From a bacterium (GTDB lineage: Bacteria > Patescibacteriota > WWE3 > 2-01-FULL-39-13 > JAACPI01), in NCBI GenBank assembly GCA_009995545.1, contig JAACPI010000001.1, positions 2,475 to 66,474 on the forward strand: a stretch of 64,000 nucleotides of DNA, given 5' to 3'. How positions within the stretch are numbered: position 1 is the first letter of the stretch; every line of letters starts with the position of its first letter. The position numbers were made by a program, and so were the translations under genes. Shown piece by piece: positions 3,088 to 64,000 of the stretch. The notes under the pieces were generated by a model. It worked only from the letters and a program-made list of their open reading frames with translations. It was not told the origin of the DNA and did not search any database.

Positions 3088-5676
3088 TTAAGGTGCTTGT
3101 TCCTGTTGATCCTTTATTGCTTTGTACGAATTATATAAGTAATAGTAAACGTATTCTGCTCTTTTATCTGCTACATTTCTAATTCCTTTAAGTATATTAA
3201 TAAAATCATCCCTAAAATTACTATCACTGCCTTGTGGGTATTCTTTATTGGCTAGTTCGCTTAGTTGGTCTTTTTTTGCCTCTATGGCTTTATATATTTT
3301 TTCTGTTTGAGCGTTTCGACCCAGCCTTGGGTATAAAAGCTCCGCAATGGTTCTTGGATCTAAAATGACGTTAACACCGTCTCCAAAGTTAATAGTAAAG
3401 TGCTCCATTCTTTTTTCTGCTAGTTTTGCTACTGTAGCTTCGCCGTTTCTTATTGTACTTCCAATTTTAAAACTTTCTGTTGGTTCTTGTTTTTTTACAG
3501 TGTAAAAATACTTAGTTTTAAATACAGGTTTTCCCTCTGCATCTTTTTCTTGTTTACCATTTCTGTCCAAGGATGGTACTAAAAATGCGCCCTCGAAGGG
3601 TAAGTCTTCCTCTTTTAAAATTAGGTCTGGTAATTGTAGGTTTTCAGGTGCCTCCTCACCTCCACCCTCCTCATTCTCATTAAGTACTCTCCAGTCTCCA
3701 TCTACAGGCTCTTCTTCTTGAGGTCTATTTACCTCAGGTGCTGGTCTTTGGGGTCTAATAGGAGGTACTGGTGGTGCAGGTGGGATATCTGGTTCTTCAT
3801 TGTTCCGTGGTCGTTCTGGAGCCCGCTGTGGCCTAAAATTTGCGGGTCCCTCGTATTTATCGCCAAATACAACCAACCCTTCATTTACAGTTGACCATAC
3901 TTCCGCCGCACTTACATAGGCAACAGAAAGCTGTACACCTGCATTTATCGCTTTAGCTATTGTAACTGCTTTATCTAAGTCTTTAAGTTGGCTAATCGCC
4001 TCTGTTTGTAAGTTATTTAAACCCTGAATTAAACCAACACCCCGGTTAAATAAATTTAGTCGTTCTTGATCTATATCTATGCTTTCAATTGGAGGGACAG
4101 GTGTATTTGTTAATAATCCATCCCAAATACCTCTCCAGGCAGAATGCAGGTTGCCTTTAGAGGCCTCTATTCCTTGTTTAAGGCTGTTTAAGGCATTTGC
4201 ATCGGTATTAACTTTATCTAGCCAATTACTCACGCTTTCGTACCCAAAACCGTGTACTCCACCTATCGTTACGCCGTTTAGATCATATGGGGCCCTGGTC
4301 ATAATTGCCTCTAGTAACTGGTCGTTACTAACTCCCAGGCTCTGTGCAGTCTCAGTGACTTGGGTTAGGACATGTGGGTTAGCCTGTAATTCTGTGTAGA
4401 TCTGTTTTATAGAATCAAATCGTAAAAGTCTCTCTTGCCCCCCGGCTGCCAGGTAAGCATCCACGTTGTTACCAAAACCGGCGCTATCGGCCGCTTTAAT
4501 TAGTTGGTGTTTTGCATAATCGTTAATTTCAACCCCACTTAATGAAAAAGAATCGCCTGTATGGGTTGGGGCCACATGCTTACTAAAAAATTCTTCGGCA
4601 TCTCCCTTCCACTGGTCTATCTGATGATTAAAATTGTCTGCTAAATCTGAAAAATGAGCGTCCTTAGATTCAAAAGCATTCTTGGCGTGTTCTGCAATTT
4701 CGGAGGCATTATCTAGGGCGGTTACAAATAAAAAGGATTTAGCGGCCCTAGAAATAGCTGAACCTATAACGTAATTTCGCTTTAACTTTTTAACTGCCCT
4801 TGCAACTTCTAACCTGCTTCTGTTAAAGGCTATTTTAACCTCTTCTGCCTTGCCCTCTTGTGCCATAGCAAAAGTTACTACACTAAGTGCATCTCTTCTT
4901 TTAGCAATCACATCATCATCTATGCTTTCGCTAAAGCCTGTAAGTGTGGCCTGAGTCATTAAATTTTGTAGTAATTTTTGTACTTGCGGCGTTTTTTCGG
5001 GTTGGTTTTGTAGTATTTGGGTGATGTCGGCAAATAGGTCTTTGTCAAAAAGCTCTATACCTAAATCTTTTACGTCAGTTCTAATCTCTTTATTTCTAGC
5101 TTTTGCTTTAAATGATTTTCGGGTAGCAATGCTTTCGGGCAGACTTAAAAAATCTGAGACAACTCGCCAGGCAGCTTTTAATACTTTTTTCTCGCCTAGG
5201 GCCTTTTCTATTTCTCTTGTTCTGCCTGAAACTTTTCTTTGGTAAAACTCCTGGGCACCTGCACCCCTTTGATCCACTTTTCTTACTTCCATTGCCCCAG
5301 AAACTGTTCCAGTTATAGCACCAACTATACCTGCAAGTGGGGGACCGCCCACCGTTCCAAATATAAGTTCTACTCCTGATCTGGCTGCTATTCCTGCAGC
5401 CACTGGTAAAGCAATTTCAGCAACTTTACCTGCTATCCTTGCTGCCTTGTTGCCTGGATGGGCCCTTTGTTCATAGTTGTCTGTGACATTTTCTGCATTA
5501 ACTAAATCAAAAAGGCTTTGAAGTGACTCACTGGCATCTTGAGGTATGCGGTAATTTCTTTTTACAACTTCGTGGATCGAGTCGGGGGCGGTCGGGGAGT
5601 AGCTTCCTTTGTGATCTGGTCCCTCGGTTGCGCTATCACGTAAGTTTTGAGCAATAAACCTTACTACTTCTGACAT
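3088..5676 (-). CDS. Large hypothetical protein (862 aa) with a glycine-zipper hydrophobic segment near the N-terminus and a Pro-rich hinge (PPAPPVPPIRPQRPAPE) before a roughly 200-aa C-terminal domain
   Basis: Long ORF of about 45-50% GC against a roughly 33% background. Its ATG overlaps the stop of the upstream 157-aa ORF (TAAATG). No catalytic motif recognised. Confidence 0.55.
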   Translation of the reverse strand: MSEVVRFIAQNLRDSATEGPDHKGSYSPTAPDSIHEVVKRNYRIPQDASESLQSLFDLVNAENVTDNYEQRAHPGNKAARIAGKVAEIALPVAAGIAARSGVELIFGTVGGPPLAGIVGAITGTVSGAMEVRKVDQRGAGAQEFYQRKVSGRTREIEKALGEKKVLKAAWRVVSDFLSLPESIATRKSFKAKARNKEIRTDVKDLGIELFDKDLFADITQILQNQPEKTPQVQKLLQNLMTQATLTGFSESIDDDVIAKRRDALSVVTFAMAQEGKAEEVKIAFNRSRLEVARAVKKLKRNYVIGSAISRAAKSFLFVTALDNASEIAEHAKNAFESKDAHFSDLADNFNHQIDQWKGDAEEFFSKHVAPTHTGDSFSLSGVEINDYAKHQLIKAADSAGFGNNVDAYLAAGGQERLLRFDSIKQIYTELQANPHVLTQVTETAQSLGVSNDQLLEAIMTRAPYDLNGVTIGGVHGFGYESVSNWLDKVNTDANALNSLKQGIEASKGNLHSAWRGIWDGLLTNTPVPPIESIDIDQERLNLFNRGVGLIQGLNNLQTEAISQLKDLDKAVTIAKAINAGVQLSVAYVSAAEVWSTVNEGLVVFGDKYEGPANFRPQRAPERPRNNEEPDIPPAPPVPPIRPQRPAPEVNRPQEEEPVDGDWRVLNENEEGGGEEAPENLQLPDLILKEEDLPFEGAFLVPSLDRNGKQEKDAEGKPVFKTKYFYTVKKQEPTESFKIGSTIRNGEATVAKLAEKRMEHFTINFGDGVNVILDPRTIAELLYPRLGRNAQTEKIYKAIEAKKDQLSELANKEYPQGSDSNFRDDFINILKGIRNVADKRAEYVYYYLYNSYKAIKDQQEQAP

Positions 5677-44747: not shown

Positions 44748-47135
44748 TTAACGATCATTCTGAAAGTACCACAACATTCCGTCTACTAACTCTTCCATAT
44801 GTTTTGGTGTAAGGGCCAATTTGTTTTGTTGATTTAACCAACTTACATATTCCTTAAAAAAGTCCGGGCCCAGTACTATTAATTGGCTTCCAGTACTCCG
44901 AGTTATGTTTAATACGTGGTCGGTTAATTCTTTAACACGAAAAGCTCCAAATATTTTGCCGTAACTACTGTTATTAGCAATAACTCTATGACTGCCGTAT
45001 TTATCTTGGCTTATTACACCTGGGGTATTTTTTATACACACATCCAAAAGTTCTGCAAAAGCATAGCCCATAAGATCATTTGGTATGTATTTTATTAACC
45101 AATCTTGTGTAAGAGTATCCAGTGCTATCACTCTAGGGGTAACCTCCATACCTGCGGATAATGCTGCATTAAATTTATTTGCATAAGCCTCGTCGTAGTA
45201 AAAGACCTCTTTTTTAGTTTCTTGTTTTTTACTTGGCCCGCCAGTTTTAATCATTTTAGATCTTTTTATAGCAACTTCTACACCTTCTTGTGCCTGTATT
45301 TCTTCCAAAGCTTGTCTGTGGGCTGTACTACCGGGTTTGAAGGGCATTAGCATTTGTAAGTACTCAAAAATTTTATCGTAACTTATAAACTCTAAAAAGA
45401 CCTGTTTTAAGTCTAAAATGTCCTCGTTGCCCTCTAAATTAGCCGTATCTACTAAGTAGTATAAAAATTTTATTCTAGCATCAATGTCTGCCTTTAATGT
45501 TTCTACAGTCTGGATAATACTTGGCCTTAGTCTTACAAGATTTGTTCGTTGACCTCTACAGTACCTTTTTATGTTTTCTAGCCTGCCCGCCGTAAAATCA
45601 AAATCCCCTAAGTTATGGGGGTGAATAGCCTGTTGTATCAATATTATAAGATGTTCACCCATTAAAATTACATCTTCGTCTGTTATTGCAATTTCTGGTT
45701 TTTTATCTTCATTTTTCAATTTTAGCTTGTAGATAGATCCTTCCAACTTCCAACCGTTCTGCTGACCATTTAAGATTTTGGAATAAATCTCTTCTCTTTC
45801 ACTACCCTTTAACTGTAAAAGCAAACTTAAAGTTTGTGCCAGCAATTCCTGAGTTTCTATAGAAACGGTTGCTTTAGACCAGCTGTGTAGAGCGTTTTCT
45901 ACATCCTGTATAGAAAATTCTTCACCCACAAAATTTTGTAGTGCCAGTTCTACTGCTTCTATCCCACCTACTCTTTGGGCAGTAGCATGCTCTTTGTTGG
46001 ATCCATCAAACCCTTTTTTAGATAAGTATTGAAGTAATTGTCCTTGTGAGCAACATCTAAGTTCTTCTATTGCTTTTGCTAAAGATGGTCTATCTAACGA
46101 ACTTAAAAAAGTTCTTGTTGTTGTGCCCAAAAAATTCGCTTTGTCTAACTTATGTTCTAAAGTTTGCAATAAAATTAAAAAGGTTCTGTGGTTTAGTCCC
46201 GATGCTGTAATAATACCTTTTACAGCTTCTAGTGTGTCTTGTGAAGATTTCTCTACTAAAATAGGTTGTACTTCGGATCTTACTCTACCTGAAATACCTC
46301 TCACTTCTCTAATCATTTGGTATATTCTTGCCTGTTTAGTATTTTGGCACAAAGTTAAGTACAGGTCTTGCTGTCTGGTAGCCGCGATTTCTTTTCTACC
46401 CAGGTGTTTAAAACCCGCCCCCTCAGTAGTTTTAATTCCCGATAAATCCAGTAGTTCTTGTATTGGGTCCACCCCTTCCTCTTCGTCAAAATTTTTCAAA
46501 GTCTCGGGATCAACAATTAATTCTTGTCTTTGTTTTTTAAGTGTTGGATTGAATTTTAAAAAATCCCTGTATTTTGAAACTTGCTCCCAAATATTTACTA
46601 AGGGTAAGTTGGTCGTTTTCTCAACGTTAAATAAAACTTCTCTTCTGTAGGCTGCAATGGCGGGTAATACTGGGTAAATAACTGCTCTAAAGTCTTCTAT
46701 TTGTTTTTCTATTTCTGCTAACTGTTCTACTGCGTAATTTTGTTGGTACCTTAAGGCAGTTCTTGCCGTAGTTACAAGGCAAGGAAAGTCTTGTGCCCCA
46801 TCGTAAATATCCTGTAATAGGGGAGTAGTATAGTAGTCAACTTCAAATCCAAAGTTTGCGTGTATAAATTGCTTTTCTAAGTACTCATAGTAGTAAATAT
46901 TAGACGCTTCTTCAGGTTTTGCCTGTGGGGTAGAGTTTTGTGGTGTGAAGTAGTTTTCTCCAAACAGCTGTTTAATAAGTAATACCTCTTCTTGTTTGAT
47001 ATAGGGCTGTTCAAAAGGAATACTTGTTTCTTCCATCACTCTATTAGCGGCCTCTAGAAGACAGTCTCTCCACTCTTGTTGTGCTGGGTTTTCAAACTCT
47101 ATTTGATTTTCGTTTGTATCTTGTTTTAGTTTCAT
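44748..47135 (-). CDS. Large hypothetical protein (795 aa), 34 bp upstream of secE on the same strand
   Basis: Long ORF, predominantly helical by composition, with no recognisable catalytic motif. The C-terminal roughly 150 aa has faint macro-like spacing (VIANNSSYG…LIVLGPDF). Confidence 0.5.
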   Translation of the reverse strand: MKLKQDTNENQIEFENPAQQEWRDCLLEAANRVMEETSIPFEQPYIKQEEVLLIKQLFGENYFTPQNSTPQAKPEEASNIYYYEYLEKQFIHANFGFEVDYYTTPLLQDIYDGAQDFPCLVTTARTALRYQQNYAVEQLAEIEKQIEDFRAVIYPVLPAIAAYRREVLFNVEKTTNLPLVNIWEQVSKYRDFLKFNPTLKKQRQELIVDPETLKNFDEEEGVDPIQELLDLSGIKTTEGAGFKHLGRKEIAATRQQDLYLTLCQNTKQARIYQMIREVRGISGRVRSEVQPILVEKSSQDTLEAVKGIITASGLNHRTFLILLQTLEHKLDKANFLGTTTRTFLSSLDRPSLAKAIEELRCCSQGQLLQYLSKKGFDGSNKEHATAQRVGGIEAVELALQNFVGEEFSIQDVENALHSWSKATVSIETQELLAQTLSLLLQLKGSEREEIYSKILNGQQNGWKLEGSIYKLKLKNEDKKPEIAITDEDVILMGEHLIILIQQAIHPHNLGDFDFTAGRLENIKRYCRGQRTNLVRLRPSIIQTVETLKADIDARIKFLYYLVDTANLEGNEDILDLKQVFLEFISYDKIFEYLQMLMPFKPGSTAHRQALEEIQAQEGVEVAIKRSKMIKTGGPSKKQETKKEVFYYDEAYANKFNAALSAGMEVTPRVIALDTLTQDWLIKYIPNDLMGYAFAELLDVCIKNTPGVISQDKYGSHRVIANNSSYGKIFGAFRVKELTDHVLNITRSTGSQLIVLGPDFFKEYVSWLNQQNKLALTPKHMEELVDGMLWYFQNDR

Positions 47136-47196: not shown

Positions 47197-48540
47197 TTAA
47201 TTTCCTCCGTTCAAAAAGTCGATTCGTTCCGCCTCTGACCAGTCAGTAGGGTCTACACCAAAATGATTCGCATTTGGGTTTGTCCAGTGGCTTTGCATAA
47301 AAGCAGTTTGGTCTCTTTCTCCCAATTTAACTAGAAGTGCCGTGTACGACGAATCTGAACCACTAAGATCTGTGTTACGGACCAGCTGCTTAGCTGTATT
47401 TCGGACTCTCTTTGTTCTACCTGCCACGCTAACTACACCAGCCTTGCTCTCTGTAGTCTCAGGTTCGAAGTAAAGTTGCAGAGATAAAACGCTCCTAGCG
47501 GCCTTAACCGGATCAAAGTGTCTATTTGAAAAATTTGGGTCCTGTAAGGCTTGTAGATTATTTTTATTACGTAATAGTTGCTCCACAATACCTATCCTAA
47601 ATAATTCATACTCGCTCCCCATGTTTTCTAAACTATAGCTGTAAACATCGTCTGAAATATCCGTTTGGAGTATTCCTGACTTTCCTTCATCTTCCAAATC
47701 ACAATGAATTCCCAAAATTCTGCAGGCTATCTCGTGTGCCTCTGTAATTATCTCCAGATTTGTCAGGTCAATATTTACCCCAAATAGTTGTTTTAGCTGA
47801 TTAAATAAGGCTGATTCAAAGTACTCCTGGTTTCCTGATGCTATATTACTTAACACTATTAATAGTGTTTCCGCTAGTGCCACTTCCTTATTTTTCCTGT
47901 CCCTCATCAGTTGTTCTCGATCTTGCTCCCTTCCTTTTTGTTTTGATTGGTGTGCAATCTGTACTATTCTAATAATTTTAGAAACTGGCCCGGTACGGGA
48001 TTCCATTATCTGCCTAGGTGTTTCCTCAAAGTCAGTAGGGGCTCCAAGTATTTGCATAATAGTTTCATTAGATAAAGCACTTGCCCCAGGGAAATATTTT
48101 TCCATTCTACGTGTAGAAATTGGGTGACCAAAAAGTGAACTTATTTCATCTAGTGCCCTGGGGTCTACTGTTTCTCTTTTAATTCCACTGGAAGTTCGTC
48201 TCCAAAACTCTTCCATGTGAGCCTGTCCAGTTGTATCCGCTATCCGACCTATCCGACCTATCATTATTAGGTCCTTGTCCCTGGTTACATAGGGAAGTCT
48301 CCCTGCAATTAAAGCAAACTCTCCGATTCCACTCCCGCTGTTTGCAATTTCTGAGGCTGTAACTCTTGCTAGCACGCCGTGGGTATTTAATACTGTGGCC
48401 ACATCTGTAGCTGTAGGTATAAATTCTTGGATTTCCTTATTTTCCTTTACAGGCACAATTTCTGTGCCCATTTGTACAGATTCTCTAGATATGGGTTCGT
48501 TTGGTTTGTTTGACATATTTAATGTATAAAAATCTTGCAT
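47197..48540 (-). CDS. Hypothetical protein (447 aa), GC-elevated
   Basis: ORF with no recognised motif. GC is about 40-45%. Confidence 0.5.
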   Translation of the reverse strand: MQDFYTLNMSNKPNEPISRESVQMGTEIVPVKENKEIQEFIPTATDVATVLNTHGVLARVTASEIANSGSGIGEFALIAGRLPYVTRDKDLIMIGRIGRIADTTGQAHMEEFWRRTSSGIKRETVDPRALDEISSLFGHPISTRRMEKYFPGASALSNETIMQILGAPTDFEETPRQIMESRTGPVSKIIRIVQIAHQSKQKGREQDREQLMRDRKNKEVALAETLLIVLSNIASGNQEYFESALFNQLKQLFGVNIDLTNLEIITEAHEIACRILGIHCDLEDEGKSGILQTDISDDVYSYSLENMGSEYELFRIGIVEQLLRNKNNLQALQDPNFSNRHFDPVKAARSVLSLQLYFEPETTESKAGVVSVAGRTKRVRNTAKQLVRNTDLSGSDSSYTALLVKLGERDQTAFMQSHWTNPNANHFGVDPTDWSEAERIDFLNGGN

Positions 48541-49519: not shown

Positions 49520-52273
49520 ATGTCAAAAGCACTAGCAGAATCTCAATTTAAGGGTGATCAAGAAAAGGTTTTTATAGACTTGTTTGGTAATGCTTGCGTA
49601 GAGATAGCTAACGAGGAATACTTTGATGCTTACAATAAATATCCAAAACCTACTGGTGAGGAAGACCCTCATTTTAATACTTTTTTACAATCTAGAATTT
49701 CTGTTTACCAACGAGCTTTGGAAATAGGAAAATCCTGCTTAGATAATAGATTTACAAACGACCCAGAGGTTACTTTGCAAGATCCCAAAGACGGTGTATT
49801 TAAAACCTATAAATATGACCCTGTTAGTAGGGGGGTAGTTCTCGTTAATGAAGCAGTCTCCAAACAGGGTAATAGTTTTATAGATTTTACGCTAAATTTT
49901 GGAGAAGAATCTGCCTCGGACAATTCAGATAACGGAGACTTCCGCCGATCGGAAAATGACGAGATTAACTTTTACTCTGATTATACCTTGATGCACCAAA
50001 TGCTTTCAAAGGGCATGGAAGAGTTAGGTGCTCAATATACTTTTTTTGAGGCAGCCTTAAATAAATTTAAAAGATTTGACTCCACTGGTTGGGCTACATT
50101 AAAAAACACACCCCCCATTGATATAAACTTAAAAAGGGCTAAAAACTATCTTGCGATTCTAGATAAAATGCCCTCAAATGTAGAAAAAAGCTCTTGGTTT
50201 GTAAACCAAAGGGTCTTAGATCCTTCTTTAGAGAACTGGTCAGATAGAAGTAATCAGTTGCTAGAAGAGGCTGAAATTTTGGAAGGATTTTTTAATTCTG
50301 GCCCGGAGTATAAAACTGTACGAACTTTAAACTCTGAGAATTCTTTTGCTGTAGCATTGATTGGGGAAAGATATACCCCTTCTTCATTTCCTCAAATATA
50401 TATTGACGATGTTATTGCGATTAGTAGGATAATTTATGATCTAGCTATTTCTATACCCGATCCAATTGACAGAGAAAGTGCCTTAACAAATGTTGCTAGC
50501 GAGATTTTTATTAAAAGGTCTTCTCAGTTAGTCTCTTTATTGGAATCAAGAGGCATGCCTGTTGAATTGGGGTTAAATTACTTTAGGCAGATATTACAAA
50601 AGTACATTATGCGTCTCCCGGAACAATACTGCGTAGACTTTTTTGAGGGTAGAGAAGTTGAATTTACAATGAGAAACTTACTTTATGGTAGATATAACAC
50701 TGTTCACGATGAAAGAGAAAACTCCGAACGACATTTAGCCTCTTTTTTACAGCAGTATAAACAGGGGAAGTACAAGTCAGACTCGTTGGAGTCTTTAGAA
50801 CCCGGTACCGTTAAAGAAGTTTACGCCAAACTGGTAACAGGAAAACTAGAGGGTTTTGACTCAGAAAGCACTAGAAATGCCCTTATAGCCACTTTGAGAT
50901 ATTTTCAAATCGACTACGAGGATTCTTTGCAGGTTTTTGTTCCCACCGAAGGGTCGGTTACGTGCAGAACTTTTTTTGGGTCGATTAAAGATAACTTAAA
51001 ACAGCTTTCCCCTGTGGTTATCGAAGTGTTTTCTGAAATTTACGCTTATAAAAGTCTAGTTAACGAACTTAATGAGCTTGGAAAAGCAGGTCAAATAAAA
51101 GCTGACGCCCTTTTGGTTGGAAGAATTAAAAACAAGTATTCTGGCGAGAACGTCTCTGATTTCAGATCTGGTGATAAATTATATTTAGATTTGGATGTTT
51201 TTGTTGAATGCCACTTGCCCCAGATTGCAAGAAACATTAAATCTGTAATTGAGCAAGTTTCTTACTATAGTCAGCCTTTAAGTTCCGAAAATATTATATT
51301 ATCTGTAAAAAAATGGGTTAAAGAAAGACCAGAACTGGTAAGCCCCGCGTGTGCGGCTTTTGGTTTAAGCCCTCTCCAATTAGAGCAATATATAGCTGCT
51401 AAAGTAACCTTTATAACTGTAAAATCTAAGCGCTATTTTGCAAGTAACCCTAATTTTATGTTAGTTACCCTAGAAAACTCTTGGGCAGAAAACTTAGCAG
51501 AGCAAGAAAGTAAAAAAAAAGTTGAAAAACTTGTAAATAAAGGATTCACCTGGCAGGAATTCTCTGCTTTACCCGTTATAGTGCAAAATAGGCTGGTAGA
51601 TGCTGTTTTCGAAATGCCCGATACCAAGGAAAAACAGGAATTGCTTTTAGATATCTTTTACTATCTAAGGCTTAAATATTCTATGAGAGGGCCACTAAAG
51701 TTGTTTGATGTTACAAAACAGAAATCAGAAGAGCCCTTAGTAAAAATTAAACGCATTCAGGCTGTGTCTCATTTTTCTGTTAGAGCCATTCAAGGTTTAT
51801 CTAGTGAGTCTGTACTTGCAGATTATCTTGATACCGTTTTACTAAGGGATAGACTCTTTTCTACTATAGACAGCGGCATACCCAAACCTTTTACGGGTCA
51901 GTTGGGTAAAGAACTTAGACAAGAATTTTTTACATATTATTTTGCTAAACATGGCACTAGAAAGGGAAGTGTTATACCAAAAACCCTATACAGTAAAGAC
52001 ACTATATCTTTGATGGCAAGGGATTTTGTACAAGAAAACTTAAGTATAGTCGAGGAAAAAATGGAACGGAGAAACGTAAAAATTAGAAGAGCGGAAAACC
52101 ATTATGATTTAGACCGATTTACTAATGAACTTGTAGAATATGCTGAGGATGCCTTTGAAAGAACCCGAAGGTTACTTTACGGTAATGGATACGTGGTTGA
52201 GAGAGGTTTAACAAGTAAGGTTGTTATACAAACATTAACATCTCTACTTGAGGCTTCCTTAGAAAGAATATAA
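49520..52273 (+). CDS. Large hypothetical protein (917 aa)
   Basis: Long ORF with no TM segment, no signal peptide and no nucleotide-binding or metal-binding motif visible. Confidence 0.5.
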   Translation: MSKALAESQFKGDQEKVFIDLFGNACVEIANEEYFDAYNKYPKPTGEEDPHFNTFLQSRISVYQRALEIGKSCLDNRFTNDPEVTLQDPKDGVFKTYKYDPVSRGVVLVNEAVSKQGNSFIDFTLNFGEESASDNSDNGDFRRSENDEINFYSDYTLMHQMLSKGMEELGAQYTFFEAALNKFKRFDSTGWATLKNTPPIDINLKRAKNYLAILDKMPSNVEKSSWFVNQRVLDPSLENWSDRSNQLLEEAEILEGFFNSGPEYKTVRTLNSENSFAVALIGERYTPSSFPQIYIDDVIAISRIIYDLAISIPDPIDRESALTNVASEIFIKRSSQLVSLLESRGMPVELGLNYFRQILQKYIMRLPEQYCVDFFEGREVEFTMRNLLYGRYNTVHDERENSERHLASFLQQYKQGKYKSDSLESLEPGTVKEVYAKLVTGKLEGFDSESTRNALIATLRYFQIDYEDSLQVFVPTEGSVTCRTFFGSIKDNLKQLSPVVIEVFSEIYAYKSLVNELNELGKAGQIKADALLVGRIKNKYSGENVSDFRSGDKLYLDLDVFVECHLPQIARNIKSVIEQVSYYSQPLSSENIILSVKKWVKERPELVSPACAAFGLSPLQLEQYIAAKVTFITVKSKRYFASNPNFMLVTLENSWAENLAEQESKKKVEKLVNKGFTWQEFSALPVIVQNRLVDAVFEMPDTKEKQELLLDIFYYLRLKYSMRGPLKLFDVTKQKSEEPLVKIKRIQAVSHFSVRAIQGLSSESVLADYLDTVLLRDRLFSTIDSGIPKPFTGQLGKELRQEFFTYYFAKHGTRKGSVIPKTLYSKDTISLMARDFVQENLSIVEEKMERRNVKIRRAENHYDLDRFTNELVEYAEDAFERTRRLLYGNGYVVERGLTSKVVIQTLTSLLEASLERI

Positions 52274-52277
52274 GAAA

Positions 52278-52892
52278 TTAAATAAACCTACTCAACAAGT
52301 TGTAAGTAAAGTTAATTACCGGGCCTAGTATTTTACCTGTAGTGCCTGTAAATATAAGCAAGAGTAAAATTATTGTTCCGTATCTGTAGGTCTCTTTAAA
52401 TTGCTCGCTTAATTCGTTTGGCAAAATGCTGGATATCACATTAAAACCGTCCAAAGGGTAAATAGGTATTAAATTAAAGGTAGCTAATACTACGTTTATA
52501 ATTATAAATTGTAAAATTATGGCTATTAGTACCTCGGGTATTGTCCCAAATCCAATATACAGTGTCCCAAATCCCAATAATGCCATAGCAATATTGCTTA
52601 AAGGTCCTGCGAAGGCAATTATTCCTGTATCTCTCTTGGGGTTTTTTAGGTTGTAAGGGTTAAATATAACAGGCTTTCCCCAGCCGAAAGTTGGTCCTGG
52701 TATAAGGGCTGTGATTACTAAAAGAGCCGTTCCTACAGGGTCTAAATGCTTTAAAGGGTTTAAGGTCACCCTACCCATCATTCTTGGTGTGGCATCGCCT
52801 AATTTATCCGCGGCATAAGCATGCGCAAACTCGTGAATAGATAAAGCTAAAAGCAGTACTGGTAATAAAAATAATAGTGTAAAAATAGACAT
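52278..52892 (-). CDS. Site-2-protease-family (peptidase M50) zinc metalloprotease
   Basis: HEFAHA zinc motif and NLIPIYPLDGFN second motif. Polytopic membrane protein. Confidence 0.65.
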   Translation of the reverse strand: MSIFTLLFLLPVLLLALSIHEFAHAYAADKLGDATPRMMGRVTLNPLKHLDPVGTALLVITALIPGPTFGWGKPVIFNPYNLKNPKRDTGIIAFAGPLSNIAMALLGFGTLYIGFGTIPEVLIAIILQFIIINVVLATFNLIPIYPLDGFNVISSILPNELSEQFKETYRYGTIILLLLIFTGTTGKILGPVINFTYNLLSRFI

Positions 52893-52937
52893 ATCGTTAG
52901 TATAGAGGATCTCCGACGTACTATCTAGGTTTAAAAA

Positions 52938-53405
52938 TCACCTAAAAATAAATAATGTACTCAGGAGTATTAATTTCGGTAAAAATATTATTATTCCAAT
53001 TAAAACGGCAAAGGCAGCGCTTATTAAAACTGCACCACTAGAAGTATCTTTGGCAACTCTAATACGTTCTTTGTACTTTTCATCTGCAACCTCATCGCTT
53101 AATGATTCTATTGCTGTGTTAACCATTTCCATAGCAAAAACTAAGGCCGAGACTAACATTAAAACTACTATCTCGTAGTACTCTATGAGGCTAAAAAAAC
53201 TAAAAAATAGAATTGTAATTCCTAATAAAGTAAAAGCGTAGGTATGTATTTGAAAGTTGGGTTGGGTTTTAAACGCCCATTTAACACCGTTAAAAGCGTA
53301 TTTAAAACTAACATGGTGAAATTTTCTTTCGCCTTTAGTTTTGGGGTAGGGGAGTTTTTCAACTTTATTACTAATTTTTTTGTGAAAATTAAATATTTTA
53401 AACAT
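52938..53405 (-). CDS. dgkA: Diacylglycerol/undecaprenol kinase (DgkA family)
   Basis: EMVNTAIESLSDEV motif and three TM helices, about 155 aa. Confidence 0.6.
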   Translation of the reverse strand: MFKIFNFHKKISNKVEKLPYPKTKGERKFHHVSFKYAFNGVKWAFKTQPNFQIHTYAFTLLGITILFFSFFSLIEYYEIVVLMLVSALVFAMEMVNTAIESLSDEVADEKYKERIRVAKDTSSGAVLISAAFAVLIGIIIFLPKLILLSTLFIFR

Positions 53406-53417
53406 TTTTTGTTGTTA

Positions 53418-57648: not shown

Positions 57649-60204
57649 ATGGCCATAATGTACCAAGCTGTAGATAATGATCGTGTTCCAGGTGAATATT
57701 GTCCTTTATCAAACACAGTAGGGAGTGAAAATAAAGCATTATCTGAATTTACTCCTGCAGATATTTTTACAAAATCAGACCTTGGGCCTGTTCTTGCAGA
57801 AGTAATTACTGTGGGTAGGCAGTTTCATGAGGCAACCGGTATCATTCCCCGTGCTCTTATAATTCCTGTTTCTGGGACTTTGCAAGTAGAGACAAGGATA
57901 CCCGGCGTATCCTCTATTGTAGTCCCTCGTTCCGTTGATTTTATAGGAAGTCTTTCTGTAGACCCTGTCTTATTAAATGAGCAACTTTGTGCAAACGGTG
58001 TATCCCTTTTAACAATTCGTAAACAAATAAAAGCAGCTAACGATATTTTAAATACACCCTCAACTTCTAGAACACTTAGGCAAAGTACTGTAAAACAATT
58101 AGCTGAACTTGAGGCAAAACAGTCATTGTTGGTGAGTGGTATTTTATCTGCATCAGGTGCTTTATACCTACCTTTTTCTAAAACAGAGACACCTGTATCT
58201 GTACCTCAAAACAGTACGGGTAATAAAACCCCCTTACCTCCGATTGTTCCCACACCTAGCAGCTCGGGTAAAAAGTCTTCAAAGACTACAGGAGGGGAAG
58301 TTGTGTCCCTTGATGAAGTTACTAAACCTTTGCCTCAGAAAAAAAGACGTAATGGCGCCCTTATTGCTATTACAAGTACAGTTATTGCCTCGTTGGTAGT
58401 GGGTTGTGCTTCAGGTAAACCGGTTGACTCTGCTCCCTCACCTACGGTGACTATTGCAGTTCCTGCTAACTCTGTACCAGAACAAATATTACCTGAGGGT
58501 CTAGATGTTAGAGAGGTAAATGTACATTTTGATACATCGGCAATTAAGGCTGAGCTTCCTAACGGCACTACCGTAACTATCCCTAATTTAGAAACATTGT
58601 TAGCGGAATCTTCTTTGGGAGTTAGTACTACTATTAATGCAGATTCTGGTGCTAAGGTACGAGGCTACACCTTGGATTCCGAGGGTAATCCCATAATTGA
58701 TGGCGTCGTTAAAAACTTGCCTAACGGTAGCCCTGTTGTTGTTGTAGGTATAAAAAAAGCATCTGACGAGGCACCCGCCCCAGAGGATAACTGGGCATTG
58801 CTTGAGGACGGAACCTCCGTTGCAGCAAGTTTAGTAAACCTTGTCTCTGCAGAGCGTCTGATTGGTACTGGTGGAGATCAAGCATCTTTAGAAAAAATGA
58901 ATGAGGAACTTGCTAAGGTAACAGGATTATCTGTAGGTGAGGTAGCTTTATTACCGGAATCGATACGTAGTATTTTAATAAGAGGTGCAGGTTCTTCCTA
59001 TACTATTGAAGGCTATTCTGTCGCAGCTCTACTTCCCAACAGTAATTTATTTGTTTTAACAGGCCCAGATGGTCGTATTGTTTTTTCTCCCGCGGACAGT
59101 ATAGCCTCAGTTTTGGGTCTTTCAGCTGAGGAATACTCTAATTTAATGGCAAATATAAGTGTTGTTGTAAACCCACAAACTCTAGGAGACCTTTCAATAT
59201 ACATGGGCACTGTACTTTCGGTAGATTTTGCTACTGAATATTCTCAGGGTGTACCGAATTTTGAGGCACAAAATATACCTACTGAACTCTCCAGCAGGTT
59301 TCCAGATTTGTCTATACGTGGGAAGGAAAGTACCGTTCCTCCCAGATTAGTTCAAACAATTTTGGGCAGGGATGTTACAGTTGCAGTTTGGGACACAGAA
59401 TCCTCAAATTGGGTGCAATCTGGTTTAACACAAGCTGAGTTAGAAGAAATTGAAAGTAGTAACGTAATTCTTTTTAACGATGGTAAAGGCGACGGGAATA
59501 AAAAACCACTAGAGTTGGGTCCTTTTTACGAAGATACTGTTGGTAGCTTGGCCTTATATGGAATAGCTGCTTCAGATTACAAGTTTACTCAAGTTGACAT
59601 TTTAAACAAATCAGATGGAACCCCAACAGGGTGGAAATTCGGTTCTTTGTCAATTGATATTTATCAGAAGGATGTTGATGGAAGTTACACTGCTCAAAAT
59701 TGGTTGATTCAATCGGGGAGTGTCTTTATATCTCCAAATGGTAAAAGATTTACCTCAATCGTACAACAGGGTGGTTCTACAATCGGTATTGGTGAACTGC
59801 CAGAACATTTATTCCCAGATAGAGATTTAGGAGATGGGGGTAGTTTTACAAAAGTTGGTAATTCTCCCACCCCAAATACCCCTATAAGTGTAGGTGAACC
59901 TGTAGTACTTTGGTGGCAGAATTTTGCATCGGATAATGGTTATGCAGAAAAGGTAGCTTCTGCTACTGGTAGTCTTGGAGATTACCTGAGCTCAGGTAAT
60001 TTAGACGGTACAACTGTCAGACTTGCAGGTCTAGCGTTGCAGAGAGGTGTAGATGCCAACTTTACGCTAGGTGGTTACTCTTTAGCACGATTCACCATGG
60101 AGGAAATTTCTGCAGCTATATCTTCCCACAGTCCCTTGCCAGTACCCGAAGGTCTTTTTAGCGGTGGACCTGGGTTTATAGTAAGATTTCCGGCTCAAAA
60201 ATAG
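57649..60204 (+). CDS. Large bitopic surface protein (851 aa): roughly 230-aa cytoplasmic N-domain, Ser/Pro-rich linker, TM helix (ALIAITSTVIASLVVG), roughly 600-aa extracellular domain
   Basis: ORF plus hydropathy. No recognisable catalytic motif. Confidence 0.5.
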   Translation: MAIMYQAVDNDRVPGEYCPLSNTVGSENKALSEFTPADIFTKSDLGPVLAEVITVGRQFHEATGIIPRALIIPVSGTLQVETRIPGVSSIVVPRSVDFIGSLSVDPVLLNEQLCANGVSLLTIRKQIKAANDILNTPSTSRTLRQSTVKQLAELEAKQSLLVSGILSASGALYLPFSKTETPVSVPQNSTGNKTPLPPIVPTPSSSGKKSSKTTGGEVVSLDEVTKPLPQKKRRNGALIAITSTVIASLVVGCASGKPVDSAPSPTVTIAVPANSVPEQILPEGLDVREVNVHFDTSAIKAELPNGTTVTIPNLETLLAESSLGVSTTINADSGAKVRGYTLDSEGNPIIDGVVKNLPNGSPVVVVGIKKASDEAPAPEDNWALLEDGTSVAASLVNLVSAERLIGTGGDQASLEKMNEELAKVTGLSVGEVALLPESIRSILIRGAGSSYTIEGYSVAALLPNSNLFVLTGPDGRIVFSPADSIASVLGLSAEEYSNLMANISVVVNPQTLGDLSIYMGTVLSVDFATEYSQGVPNFEAQNIPTELSSRFPDLSIRGKESTVPPRLVQTILGRDVTVAVWDTESSNWVQSGLTQAELEEIESSNVILFNDGKGDGNKKPLELGPFYEDTVGSLALYGIAASDYKFTQVDILNKSDGTPTGWKFGSLSIDIYQKDVDGSYTAQNWLIQSGSVFISPNGKRFTSIVQQGGSTIGIGELPEHLFPDRDLGDGGSFTKVGNSPTPNTPISVGEPVVLWWQNFASDNGYAEKVASATGSLGDYLSSGNLDGTTVRLAGLALQRGVDANFTLGGYSLARFTMEEISAAISSHSPLPVPEGLFSGGPGFIVRFPAQK

Positions 60205-60259: not shown

Positions 60260-60865
60260 GTGAGAACTGCCAAATTAAAACTAATAATACTTTCATTTTT
60301 TGTTTTGCTTGTTTTGGTTTTAGTAACTTACTTACTATCTAGATCAAAAAAAAGTGATTCTCCCATTTCGGATATCAACACTACTCCTGTTTCCAGTGAA
60401 CTTGAGTCTGATAAAAGTTGGTATTCTCGACAGGAAGGCTTATGGATTATTGGCACTTTAATTGAATCTAAGGAAGAAGGTGATGATTTTTATCTCAAAA
60501 TAGGGGTAGATAATTTTGAAATTAAAGTTTTATTAGGGTCTAAAGAGCTTAGTAAGTTCGGTGTTTCCTATCCCGAAAACAACCAGGTCGTGCCCTTTCA
60601 TTCCAAAAAATGGGAAACTCTTGGTTTTACAGAAATATCCTCAGATTTAATTTCCGGTCACAAAATAGCGGTTCTGATAAAAACTAGCTTTCCTGAATCA
60701 GCCTCTTTGTGCAGTAACAAGGTTTGTTCTTACTCTTTAGCTAATTTAGAAAAATATCTCCCTAATAACAAATCCCTGCAGGATAAGTTAGGTTCTGAGA
60801 ATACGGGACATTTAGAATCGGGTTTAATATATGGTCCTGTATCTCAAATTTCGCTCTACAAATGA
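60260..60865 (+). CDS. Small N-terminally anchored extracellular protein (201 aa)
   Basis: Signal or anchor segment LKLIILSFFVLLVLVLVTYLL. Its stop overlaps the next start (ATGA). Confidence 0.4.
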   Translation: MRTAKLKLIILSFFVLLVLVLVTYLLSRSKKSDSPISDINTTPVSSELESDKSWYSRQEGLWIIGTLIESKEEGDDFYLKIGVDNFEIKVLLGSKELSKFGVSYPENNQVVPFHSKKWETLGFTEISSDLISGHKIAVLIKTSFPESASLCSNKVCSYSLANLEKYLPNNKSLQDKLGSENTGHLESGLIYGPVSQISLYK

Positions 60866-63800
60866 ATACGAAGATCTTTAAGGTATTAGTGCTTTTTTTC
60901 CTACTCTTAACCTTAGTACTGCTTATTTTCCCATCTAAAAAACATGTTTCAGCTCAGACCTGTACAGGTTCTGCTCAATATGTCGACTACAGCTGTGTTT
61001 TTGATGACATAACTTTACTTTATAGCTGTATTGCTAATGGCGGTATGACCGTAGCCTGTGCAGGAGTTCCGTGCCAGACTTTCGGCCCAGTCTTTTGTTG
61101 GGGGGGTCTTAGTTGCGGCCTGTCTGCCTATGGTTCTACAGCAGGTTGCAGCACAACCCCCGTACCCCCTGCTGTTTGCGGTAACGGTACTAGAGAAACA
61201 GGAGAAGGTTGTGATGACGGCAATAAAACGAATGGTGATGGCTGTAGTTCTTCTTGTCAGATAGAAACTTCTAAACCCGTCTGCGGAAATGGTAAAAAGG
61301 AAACAGGAGAAGGTTGTGATGACGGCAATAAAACGAATGGTGATGGCTGTAGTTCTTCTTGTCAGCTAGAACCTTCCTTGCCCGTGTGTCCAAACGGTAT
61401 TGTGGAAGCTGGGGAGGCTTGTGATGACGGTAATAGTAACAATTTGGATGGTTGCAGAAATAACTGCACCACTCCTTATTGTGGCGATGGTATTATAGAC
61501 TCTCCAGGGGAGACCTGTGATGGGGGAGTGGGGTGTACTTCTAACTGTACCGGTATTACAGGAGGGGGATACGCTTGTAATGGGTCCTCCTGTGAAGCCT
61601 CTGTTGGTGGTCCATACACTGCCTCAGATTGCGGAGGAGCTTGTAATACTCCGACAGGACAATTTTTTTGTGGAAATGACCTGGCTTGCCACCCTTGTGG
61701 TGCGGGCGACTCAAATTGTAAATCCTTGGGAGATTGTCAAAGTGAGTGTGTATGTACTTCTCCAGGTGGGTGCTTTGTTTCTGGGTGTAACCCCTTAGCC
61801 ACTTCGGGAATTTGCGATGGTGCACTTATCCCTGGCGCCAACACTACTGGCTGTATGGGGAACGGTTGGATGGATCTTTTAGATTTAGCTTCAAAAAGGG
61901 TTAGGTATAATTTAGATTGTGGTAATGCAAACTGGGGCCAAACCAACATTGGTGGTGGAGGGACAAACTACGAGGGGTTGGGTGTTTTACGTAAATTACC
62001 AAATCCCCCCGATCCAAACTACCCTTGGGTTGAGGTGGCACTAGTACCTAATGGCCAGGGGGGTTCTATTGATTTTACCGACCCTTATCTTACCACGGGT
62101 GTTAATCAATATAAGGTTATAGCCAGATGTGCTTATCGTGAAAACACAGGTACTGCCGATAGGATAAAATGGGTAAAGATTGGTGGTACTACATATCACA
62201 ACAATGACGATTTCTACGATGTGAGTATGTACTCTGCATGTAGCCAGGATAAGATACTGCAGCTGGTTCTAACTCCCCCCGTCTGCAATAACTGGTTTGT
62301 TAGTCCGAACATAGACAGCATCCCAAAAACTGTAAGCATAGAATCCAATGCTTACGACGGCGAGGGTCTATCAGGGGGAGGTATGTATTACAGCACTACC
62401 CAAAATGGGGCTTACGGCAGCATAGATAGTAATGGAAACTTTGTAGCTGGGACGGCTGGAGAAATTATTGCTAACAGGGCAGATTATTTTTCTTCGGGTA
62501 CTTTAGCAGGTAAAATAACTTCTACCTTTAACATACAAAACTTACCATCGGGTAATTATCAGTTTCAGGGTAATTATTGGAATAAATATGCAAGTTTTCC
62601 CAGTACCGACCCTTTGCACTTCAAGCAATGTCTCTCCCCTCAAGTATATATAGATAATACTCCGCCTACCTGCGGAAATTGGAATTTTAACCCCGCTTCC
62701 CCTTTGGATTCGACCCAAAACTCCTTTAGCGTTTCCACTTCTGCTACGGACAACTCTGCAATTAGAGATTTCGGTTTTTACTACCAGAACTACGACGAAT
62801 CTACAAGTACCTGGGGATACTACGATGCCGGAGGTGTTTTTGTTCCAAATTCTTACGTACCTCTCGTAAAAAACAAATCAGATTATTTTACTCCCCCTGT
62901 TCCGAGCCCTACAACTACTAATTTTATTAATAGGTCCAATATACCCTCAAATAAATTTAGGTTTTTTGCAAACTACTGGGATTCCTCAGCACCTCATAAC
63001 TTGTCGGCAGGGAGTAATAATTTTTCTCAGTGTGTTTCGCCCGTTTATGAAATAAAATCCTCGGCTCCTGTAATTTCTTTAACAATTCCTGCCGCAACTA
63101 CTTACAAGGGATATAATAATTATTATTCTGATGGTAAATATTCTGTTCAGGTAAAAATTACCGATACCCCAGGAGACGTTAATACTTACAATTGGGGAGT
63201 ACTAGGCGGGTTATTAACTGGATCTCTAACCAGTGGCTTAAAGAATGGTACAGTTGTAAATTATCCTTTCAGTTTAAGTTTAGACTGGGCTCCCGGATCA
63301 GCATTTAACCAAGTTGGCACATCTCAGGTGTCTTTTAATAGTATAGACTCACAGGGTAACGATATTACTGTTTCTGACCAGATAAGTACCGTATCCCCAA
63401 CTTTTACAGCAAACACTAGCCTTCGTTATAGAAACAAGGTTGTTAGCGGTTCTCAGGACTTAAAAGCCTTTTGTGAAGATGCCGAGTTTAACAACAATGC
63501 GAATACCAAGAATTTCAATTCAGGAAATAATGGAATCTCCGCGATAGTCAATTTTACCTCTGCAGGTCCTCTTGCGAGTTCTTCCTACAACAAAAGCTTT
63601 AATACTAAAATCCAGGGCACCGACGTTTATACTAATTTAGTTGAGATGGTGGGAACTAGCTACTATACTGCCAGTTTTCTTCCCCAGTTTACTGTCCCTG
63701 GTTACGAGGTACTATGCATCAAAGACATGACGAACAACAAAACATACTCTGGGCAATCCGACTTGCTTGTTAACGTAGCTCGAGAGTCGACTCTGAATTT

Positions 63801-64000
63801 AAGAGCTGTATTTGGAAAGGTGACTCCCAAAGGTTGGTTTCAGGCAGTTGGTGGAAATATATTTACAGGTGCGGCGCCAACCTACCAATATCCTGATGTT
63901 TCGGAGGTGACTAGTGCCTTTACTGCAAATCTATATAATTTGAGTTCTAGTACTACTGCCTCTTTCAATACTCCTCCTGCTGAGGCTATATTTTCTAATT
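60862..64000 (+). CDS. Secreted giant protein with Myxococcus-type cysteine-rich repeats (CGNGxxExGExCDDGNxxxGDGCSxxC), 3'-truncated by the window end
   Basis: Frame-1 ORF from the ATG at 60862, read codon-by-codon to 64000 without a stop (more than 1040 aa). Signal peptide MNTKIFKVLVLFFLLLTLVLLIFPSKKHVSAQ. Three or more CxxGxxExxExCDDGN repeats, then a long Asn/Ser/Thr/Gly-rich beta region. The ORF track misses it because it has no in-window stop. Confidence 0.7.
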   Translation, partial: MNTKIFKVLVLFFLLLTLVLLIFPSKKHVSAQTCTGSAQYVDYSCVFDDITLLYSCIANGGMTVACAGVPCQTFGPVFCWGGLSCGLSAYGSTAGCSTTPVPPAVCGNGTRETGEGCDDGNKTNGDGCSSSCQIETSKPVCGNGKKETGEGCDDGNKTNGDGCSSSCQLEPSLPVCPNGIVEAGEACDDGNSNNLDGCRNNCTTPYCGDGIIDSPGETCDGGVGCTSNCTGITGGGYACNGSSCEASVGGPYTASDCGGACNTPTGQFFCGNDLACHPCGAGDSNCKSLGDCQSECVCTSPGGCFVSGCNPLATSGICDGALIPGANTTGCMGNGWMDLLDLASKRVRYNLDCGNANWGQTNIGGGGTNYEGLGVLRKLPNPPDPNYPWVEVALVPNGQGGSIDFTDPYLTTGVNQYKVIARCAYRENTGTADRIKWVKIGGTTYHNNDDFYDVSMYSACSQDKILQLVLTPPVCNNWFVSPNIDSIPKTVSIESNAYDGEGLSGGGMYYSTTQNGAYGSIDSNGNFVAGTAGEIIANRADYFSSGTLAGKITSTFNIQNLPSGNYQFQGNYWNKYASFPSTDPLHFKQCLSPQVYIDNTPPTCGNWNFNPASPLDSTQNSFSVSTSATDNSAIRDFGFYYQNYDESTSTWGYYDAGGVFVPNSYVPLVKNKSDYFTPPVPSPTTTNFINRSNIPSNKFRFFANYWDSSAPHNLSAGSNNFSQCVSPVYEIKSSAPVISLTIPAATTYKGYNNYYSDGKYSVQVKITDTPGDVNTYNWGVLGGLLTGSLTSGLKNGTVVNYPFSLSLDWAPGSAFNQVGTSQVSFNSIDSQGNDITVSDQISTVSPTFTANTSLRYRNKVVSGSQDLKAFCEDAEFNNNANTKNFNSGNNGISAIVNFTSAGPLASSSYNKSFNTKIQGTDVYTNLVEMVGTSYYTASFLPQFTVPGYEVLCIKDMTNNKTYSGQSDLLVNVARESTLNLRAVFGKVTPKGWFQAVGGNIFTGAAPTYQYPDVSEVTSAFTANLYNLSSSTTASFNTPPAEAIFSN
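61195..61365 (+). repeat. Perfect 66-bp direct repeat (61195-61260 and 61300-61365) spaced 105 bp apart inside the Cys-rich repeat gene
   Basis: gaaacaggagaaggttgtgatgacggcaataaaacgaatggtgatggctgtagttcttcttgtcag occurs twice with 100% identity. Confidence 0.85.

Follow-up and report, generated by a model that had tools for sequence, protein, structure and literature searches.

Size-variable surface proteins, such as the alpha C protein of group B Streptococcus and the Vlp/Vsa proteins of Mycoplasma, are built from many fully identical units and present documented copy-number polymorphism. Another kind of repeat is the Myxococcus cysteine-rich module (TIGR02232/DUF4215), which spans ~35 residues with the pattern C-x10-C-x10-C-x3-C and the motif E-x-CDDGN-x3-GDGC; the bacterial proteins that contain it, from Myxococcota and other groups, are large and bear a signal peptide, and adjacent modules within them are frequently near-identical. 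The module also occurs once each in human pappalysin-1 and pappalysin-2 (PAPP-A and PAPP-A2). In Ca. Peribacter riflensis, a member of the candidate phyla radiation (CPR), large cysteine-rich extracellular proteins were described that weakly resemble the Myxococcus repeats and pappalysin-1; the authors proposed a role in attachment and noted variation among strains (Anantharaman et al. 2016, PMC4736985). Twelve such repeats are also found in a diatom adhesive-trail protein (bioRxiv 10.1101/2023.03.06.531300). We analyzed a 64,000-nt stretch of DNA (the window; contig JAACPI010000001.1) from an uncultivated bacterium of the WWE3 lineage. A large gene that starts at ATG 60862 on the + strand of this window and runs past its end encodes a protein with tandem cysteine-rich modules, two of which share an identical block of 66 nt.

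This protein presents the same ~35-residue module as the TIGR02232/DUF4215 proteins, and it resembles them in its large size, its signal peptide and its near-identical neighbouring modules. It differs in that it contains three canonical units and one degenerate unit, against arrays of 8-13 or more units in many of the listed matches, in that its remaining ~955 amino acids (aa) are unrelated to any of the 4240 repeat-containing matches, and in the low G+C content of its DNA (36.5% in the window). The Peribacteria proteins, compared by description, are likewise large, signal-peptide-bearing and cysteine-rich with similarity to Myxococcus repeats and pappalysin-1, but their cysteine content is 7.2%, against 3.9% here, concentrated in the first 330 aa. 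As in the size-variable surface proteins, the units are in-frame tandem repeats in a secreted protein, and identical DNA between them could support deletion or expansion. Here, however, only the 66-nt core of two units is identical and the copy number is constant except in one doubtful contig. We consider it fairly probable that the gene encodes an intact, selectively maintained, Sec-exported modular protein, most likely involved in attachment or binding, and that the 66-nt identity is the trace of an old conversion tract and not a switch.

An intact, probably exported protein with cysteine-rich modules

The + frame starting at ATG 60862 remains open for 1046 codons up to the end of the window. 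An earlier note on this DNA had reported an open reading frame (ORF) of more than 1040 aa that was missing from the ORF list of the window; this is indeed the case, as the list omits the ORFs that run off the source. The full-length gene was recovered from other metagenome assemblies of the same population and comprises 1284 codons, 238 of which lie beyond the window, followed by a normal stop. This provides the extension to the full protein that the earlier note had proposed: its description of a long secreted-type ORF holds, whereas the term "giant" is generous for a protein of 1284 aa. The NCBI entry for this protein is NCT55264.1 ("hypothetical protein GW755_00300 [bacterium]"). The gene is intact, with 1284 aa, in all the longer contigs, and its 90%-identity cluster contains 4 distinct full-length sequences, each of 1284 aa, across 17 contigs. 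The standard allele contains no frame disruption; it is intact and the gene is therefore not a pseudogene, a possibility that the earlier note had considered.

The only hydrophobic segment of the protein (aa 8-24) is followed by VSA/Q (the slash marking the cleavage position), where the signal peptide is predicted to be cleaved. No hydrophobic segment was found outside aa 1-30 and no RTX motif was found in the protein. The assignment of the repeats to the Myxococcus cysteine-rich family is clear: the protein scores 94.6 bits in three stretches against TIGR02232 (curated cut-off 20.8 bits) and 37.7-40 bits against PF13948 DUF4215 (curated cut-off 27 bits), and two repeat finders identified the 105-nt tandem units. 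The four-cysteine spacing with its E-x-CDDGN...GDGC motif occurs in tandem in the units at aa 105-139, 140-174 and 175-206, while the fourth module (CGDGIIDSPGETCDGGVGCTSNC) receives no separate TIGR02232 stretch. The protein contains an even number of cysteines (50), 39 of which lie within aa 32-331. The second cysteine-rich region (aa 233-345) aligns only loosely with cysteine-repeat arrays elsewhere.

An AlphaFold model based on a 38-sequence alignment is well predicted for aa 101-231 (predicted local distance difference test, pLDDT, of 80-92), and the remainder of the N-terminal model is poor. Searching this model against the PDB with Foldseek yielded no significant match and PAPP-A was not retrieved by fold; a PDB sequence search with aa 1-473 also yielded no match. 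A single-module profile matched one module each of human PAPP-A and PAPP-A2 (E = 2e-8), and these were the only solved structures that this search found to contain the module.

The part of the protein outside the cysteine-rich aa 32-331 is composed of Asn, Ser, Thr and Gly at ~40%, in line with the beta-rich remainder described in the earlier note, whose signal peptide and Myxococcus modules are also borne out by the results above. Two consecutive domains of this part, each bracketed by a pair of cysteines presumed to form a disulfide, share homology (31% identity, E = 8e-18). Their region is predicted to be all-beta, with a pLDDT of ~70 for aa 470-640 only, and on the basis of this prediction we describe the two domains as putatively beta-sandwich-like. 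The C-terminal module (aa 751-1284) has no match in Pfam, PHROG or the PDB.

Origin of the 66-nt identical block

The sequences at 61195-61260 and 61300-61365 are identical at 66/66 bases, as stated in the earlier note, and constitute a maximal exact match. The two copies lie in register inside the adjacent 105-nt (35-codon) units 61174-61278 and 61279-61383. Assuming independent draws from the codon usage of the genome, the chance that a single 22-residue peptide would be encoded with 22/22 matching codons is ~10^-8.9, which indicates that the identity reflects shared DNA ancestry. Yet this identity is restricted to the core of the units: the first two units present 0/66 differences in the core and 13/39 outside of it, 4 of which are synonymous (Fisher test; p = 6e-7). 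For comparison, 25/66 nt differ between unit 3 and the core of unit 1. Because the flanks have diverged while the core is identical, these patterns point to a conversion tract and not to a new duplication. Gene conversion, or an equivalent form of recombination, would have copied the core of one 35-codon module onto a neighbour that had already diverged.

The comparison of strains helps to date this event. Two strains (L009 and L011) differ from the strain of the window at 10-17 positions of the gene, and both possess the same three units, the same flanking differences and a block that is 65/66 identical. This indicates that the tract is older than the split of these strains. As a rough estimate, a single neutral change since the split is about what the synonymous divergence of the strains would lead one to expect for the small number of sites in the block. 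The conversion would thus have occurred before the sampled strains separated, and the tract would have evolved neutrally thereafter. There is no need to invoke continuing conversion. Other DUF4215 proteins (e.g., P0064, P0110 and P0089) also frequently contain adjacent modules that are near-identical.

The identity had been attributed in the earlier note to a very recent duplication or to ongoing gene conversion. Conversion is the part of this claim that stands, whereas neither a new duplication nor any sign of a continuing process is apparent, and the event predates the split of the strains. A fresh tandem duplication, in which one 105-nt module would have been duplicated so recently that its copies remain undiverged, would explain why 66 identical bases are found in register in adjacent units. 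Under such a scenario the whole 105 nt should match, yet one third of the 39 outside positions differ, some of them synonymously. Moreover, no phasing of the repeat yields a fully identical 105-mer, since 61261-61299 and 61366-61404 differ heavily, and the three-unit layout is common to all strains, including those with 14-17 single-nucleotide polymorphisms (SNPs) in the gene. We therefore regard a fresh duplication as very improbable. The conversion tract itself is a possible substrate for the rare in-frame loss or gain of one module, without constituting a phase or antigen switch.

Repeat number and strain variation

Apart from one contig (L008), every contig spanning the array contains three units (L001, which represents 8 further similar places, L002-L005, L009-L012, L020 and L025). 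The repeat number is thus essentially invariant across spanning contigs, an outcome that the earlier note had named as one that would refute its idea of variation. The earlier note had also put forward the repeats as a plausible substrate for phase or antigenic variation by repeat number. Our results do not support this proposal: the unit is in frame, only two units are near-identical, three units are found everywhere except in L008, and the SNPs are mostly synonymous. When pooling the strains, we observed 15 synonymous sites against 5 non-synonymous codons, with two of the five located in the signal peptide and none in the repeats. This difference indicates that the protein evolves under purifying selection.

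Several assemblies break inside the array. Two SPAdes contigs (L024 and L026) end at 61354, 55 nt into the second copy of the block, and a scaffold (L019) has a 100-N gap at the same place; a Logan contig (L006) ends at 61224, 30 nt into the first copy. From these positions we deduced k-mer sizes of k = 55 and k = 31, respectively. The exact repeat of 66 nt thus defeats short-read assemblies whose k-mers are shorter than 66, which break or collapse in it, and an apparent change of repeat number seen in a metagenome contig is not to be taken as biology without the reads.

Relatives of the protein and proposed function

A search with the whole protein returned 4240 matches, all of them to the cysteine modules only, covering 6-24% of the query. 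A word-indexed protein search with the C-terminal 955 aa retrieved only the protein itself. We then searched 1.84 billion representative proteins exhaustively with HMMER, using aa 330-1046 as the query, and obtained three other proteins. The first (P0142) is a metagenomic protein of 1351 aa with a strong match (E = 1e-32). The second (P0143; 582 aa; E = 1e-7) matches over the beta-sandwich-like domains only, and its score against Big_3_3 is 21.6 bits, under the curated cut-off of 27 bits. The third (P0144) is a generic immunoglobulin (Ig)-like array with a weak match. Scanning metagenome contigs with a profile of the C-terminal module retrieved only the contig of the protein itself. Another candidate relative (locus L007) was rejected as spurious: the matching peptide, NGANFEKD, lies within an unrelated 211-aa protein.

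The protein P0142 (locus L013, 4849-8904; loci L013-L015) resembles the large protein in several ways. Its last 540 aa are 40% identical, it contains beta-sandwich-like domains with the TPPxCGxW motif, and its signal peptide ends with FPSVKVSA/D, following the same pattern (FPS.K.VSA). Its gene is also located downstream of fmt, and this fmt is 67% identical to that of the window. In contrast, its head consists of two InlB B-repeat (Flg_new_2) domains without DUF4215, and the two genes located between its fmt and its own gene show no homology to the 851-aa and 201-aa genes of the window. The called start of P0142 is probably located 25 codons too far upstream. As judged from these alignments, P0142 is the only clear relative of the non-repeat part, leaving the C-terminal ~955 aa nearly orphan, and the two proteins appear to form a small family that combines a conserved C-terminal body with an exchangeable N-terminal head.

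These results suggest a model in which the exported protein would present an N-terminal cysteine-rich array, followed by tandem beta-rich domains and by the conserved C-terminal body, the latter carrying an exchangeable and distal N-terminal head. Based on this architecture, there is a roughly even chance that it functions as an extracellular, cell-associated protein of binding or attachment whose specificity is borne by the N-terminal head. Since no anchor motif was found, its retention on the cell would be putative. We regard the protein as an unremarkable addition to the large extracellular cysteine-rich proteins already known and, beyond annotation, it matters little. It contributes a TIGR02232/DUF4215 member with a clear score, from an uncultivated bacterium of low GC, and provides a record of a small conversion tract within a repeat array. 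The pair formed by a conserved body and an exchangeable head could also guide work on attachment to surfaces or to partner cells.

Evidence against this reading and alternative explanations

Several observations weigh against an intact binding protein with a stable array. The contig L008 (JGI 3300009424; 2155 bp) is one unit short: it lacks exactly 61195-61299, with a crossover inside the identical block. This sequence is the expected product of recombination, and equally that of a de Bruijn assembler passing through the repeat once. The assembly breaks at 61354 and 61224 fit k = 55 and k = 31, which favors the collapse of the repeat by the assembler, and the deletion is quite probably an assembly artefact. 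The contigs L008 and L010, both of low coverage, also share a premature stop (G>T at 61957; GGA>TGA, codon 366), which would reduce the product to its signal peptide and cysteine-rich part. A T>C change at 60673 is also common to both contigs, and position 60286 and the number of units distinguish them. The presence of the stop in two assemblies (JGI for L008 and ENA for L010) speaks in favor of a genuine minor haplotype, perhaps a truncating allele that is segregating, although the 2x coverage of L010 and the possibility that the two samples are related call for caution. We rejected the idea that GGA>TGA is silent under code 25 (TGA = Gly), as 0 in-frame TGA were found in ~18,000 codons of intact conserved genes; among the 47 ORFs of at least 100 aa in the window, the stop codons are TAA (29), TAG (15) and TGA (3). 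Finally, the SNP density of L009 reaches 4.4 per kb in the large gene, whereas the 851-aa gene, mreB and mreC have 0-0.4 per kb (p = 3e-4). The large gene and the 201-aa gene contain 17/22 of the differences of this strain, a density about ten-fold higher, with clusters at 60804-61230, 62007-62055 and 62634-62673, and most of them are synonymous. This clustering at the 5' end would be better explained by a haplotype that is older or imported than by diversifying selection. Overall, some heterogeneity in repeat number and in the stop allele may be real.

Other points concern the fold and the function of the protein. For aa 470-1046, AlphaFold gave a poor model (pLDDT of 50.7) that is insufficient for fold assignment, and the Foldseek matches to Ig/FN3-type arrays present template-modelling (TM) scores of only 0.13-0.25. 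No adhesin family was found above threshold (Big_13 reached 14 bits, with E = 0.07, where the cut-off is 27 bits), and no anchoring signal (LPXTG, PEP-CTERM or C-terminal hydrophobic segment) was found in the protein, which in this respect differs from proteins anchored through sortase, PEP-CTERM or MYXO-CTERM signals. The proposed function is deduced from architecture only.

The variation described above could alternatively be that of a contingency locus, in which recombination or slippage at the block would usefully alter the number of modules, making a surface protein variable in size or antigenicity, and the nonsense allele would add on/off heterogeneity. The exact deletion in L008 has the form expected of such a locus; the stop and the 60673 marker, shared by L008 and L010 despite their difference at 60286, point to a real minor haplotype seen twice; SNPs are concentrated in the large gene, and the Peribacteria study mentioned above noted strain variation in such proteins. 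However, only two of the units are near-identical, and a unit of 105 nt corresponds to 35 codons inside the coding region, which makes switching by frameshift impossible. All other spanning contigs have three units, including L010, which shares the haplotype of L008. In addition, assemblers fail at this repeat (L019, L024, L026 and L006) and its collapse gives exactly the sequence of L008, while the substitutions are mostly synonymous and do not change any amino acid in the repeat region. A contingency locus therefore appears unlikely. We find it similarly doubtful that the two-unit contig and the shared stop allele are both real, in which case a natural population of this small-genome bacterium would harbor variants that differ in length or have lost the function of a surface protein, the head of which is swapped among lineages. 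If this were true, it would suggest host or phage selection on the protein, and the C-terminal 540-aa module would represent a new lineage-specific surface body or anchor domain.

It is also possible, although less likely than binding or attachment, that the protein has a different function: it could be a released matrix or S-layer-like envelope protein, or it could bear a C-terminal domain with an enzymatic or toxic activity that has gone unrecognised. The lack of a detected anchor motif and of any known match to the C-terminal 540-aa module is compatible with such a function, as is the position of the gene next to mreB-mreC-PBP2, and the 201-aa membrane protein encoded upstream may be a partner. 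Yet mreB is convergent and not co-transcribed with the large gene, and the contig of the relative P0142 does not contain mreB in the 217 nt downstream. Moreover, a variable head on a conserved body together with tandem beta-sandwich-like domains is typical of binding proteins, a similarity that is one of resemblance only. A role in cell shape through the adjacency of mreB was dropped on the same grounds of convergent orientation and of the relative's contig. We therefore retain the reading of an exported binding or attachment protein.

Feature coordinates and genomic context

Table 1. Coordinates in the window of the large gene, of the parts of its product, of the two copies of the identical block and of the adjacent upstream ORF.
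Feature	Position	Strand	Remarks
201-aa ORF, N-terminal membrane anchor	60260-60865	+	TGA stop overlaps the ATG of the large gene (ATGA)
Large gene, first 1046/1284 codons	60862-64000	+	NCT55264.1
Signal peptide (predicted), aa 1-31	60862-60954	+	MNTKIFK, 17-residue hydrophobic core, then PSKKHVSA/Q
N-terminal 8-Cys region, aa 32-104	60955-61173	+	No family match; AlphaFold pLDDT ~40
DUF4215/TIGR02232 unit 1, aa 105-139	61174-61278	+	Repeat finders, profiles
66-nt block, copy 1	61195-61260	+	Synonymous G>T at 61230 in strains L009 and L011
DUF4215/TIGR02232 unit 2, aa 140-174	61279-61383	+	88% identical overall to unit 1
66-nt block, copy 2	61300-61365	+	SPAdes contigs end or are gapped at 61354
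DUF4215/TIGR02232 unit 3, aa 175-206	61384-61479	+	105-nt unit: 61384-61488
Fourth module, shortened and degenerate (CGDGIIDSPGETCDGGVGCTSNC)	61480-61557	+	Read from sequence
Second cysteine-rich region, aa 233-345	61558-61896	+	15 Cys
Domain of unknown type, aa 346-470	61897-62271	+	Contains the nonsense-allele site 61957
Beta-sandwich-like domain 1 (putative), aa 471-600	62272-62661	+	Between Cys475 and Cys590
Beta-sandwich-like domain 2 (putative), aa 601-735	62662-63066	+	Between Cys604 and Cys724
Conserved C-terminal module, aa 751-1284 (starts in the window)	63112-64000	+	40% identity to P0142

The content of the window is that of an ordinary chromosome (LeuRS, ArgRS, Rho, ATP synthase subunits and tRNAs); it is ~84% coding and uses the standard genetic code. 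On its 5' side, the large gene is preceded by fmt, by an orphan of 851 aa that contains an internal membrane segment and by the 201-aa orphan with its membrane anchor. The large gene overlaps the stop of the convergent mreB, beyond which we found mreC, a 142-aa gene and a PBP2-type transpeptidase. The 201-aa ORF always adjoins the large gene in other assemblies and is present on many public metagenome contigs; it has no match in Pfam, NCBIfam or PHROG. The ATGA overlap of the two reading frames suggests that they are translationally coupled. The 851-aa ORF (57649-60204, +) presents a long cytoplasmic N-terminal part, one membrane segment at ~aa 235-255 and an external part of 600 aa.

We also considered whether the repeat array could have been recently imported from high-GC Myxococcota. 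The G+C content at third codon positions (GC3) gives no support to this idea: it is 0.32 in the repeat part, close to that of the neighbouring genes (0.26-0.30), which argues that the cysteine array is not a recent import.

Several other genes of the window deserve mention. A 1185-aa "hypothetical" protein (NCT55221.1; 14614-18171, -) contains a Peptidase_S74 intramolecular-chaperone domain at aa 801-854 (51 bits), and its PHROG matches are annotated as PblB-type receptor-binding proteins and hyaluronidase; it is tail-fibre-like and located among housekeeping genes. In the region 52278-53414 (-), a DAGK-like gene (52938-53405, -) ends in TGA and the same frame continues into a Peptidase_M50-like gene (52278-52892). 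These are probably two genes, but nowhere else would readthrough of a TGA fuse two sizeable ORFs that have domain matches. Counting the 851-aa ORF, five further large ORFs of 447-917 aa have no Pfam match (3088-5676, -; 44748-47135, -; 47197-48540, -; 49520-52273, +; 57649-60204, +).

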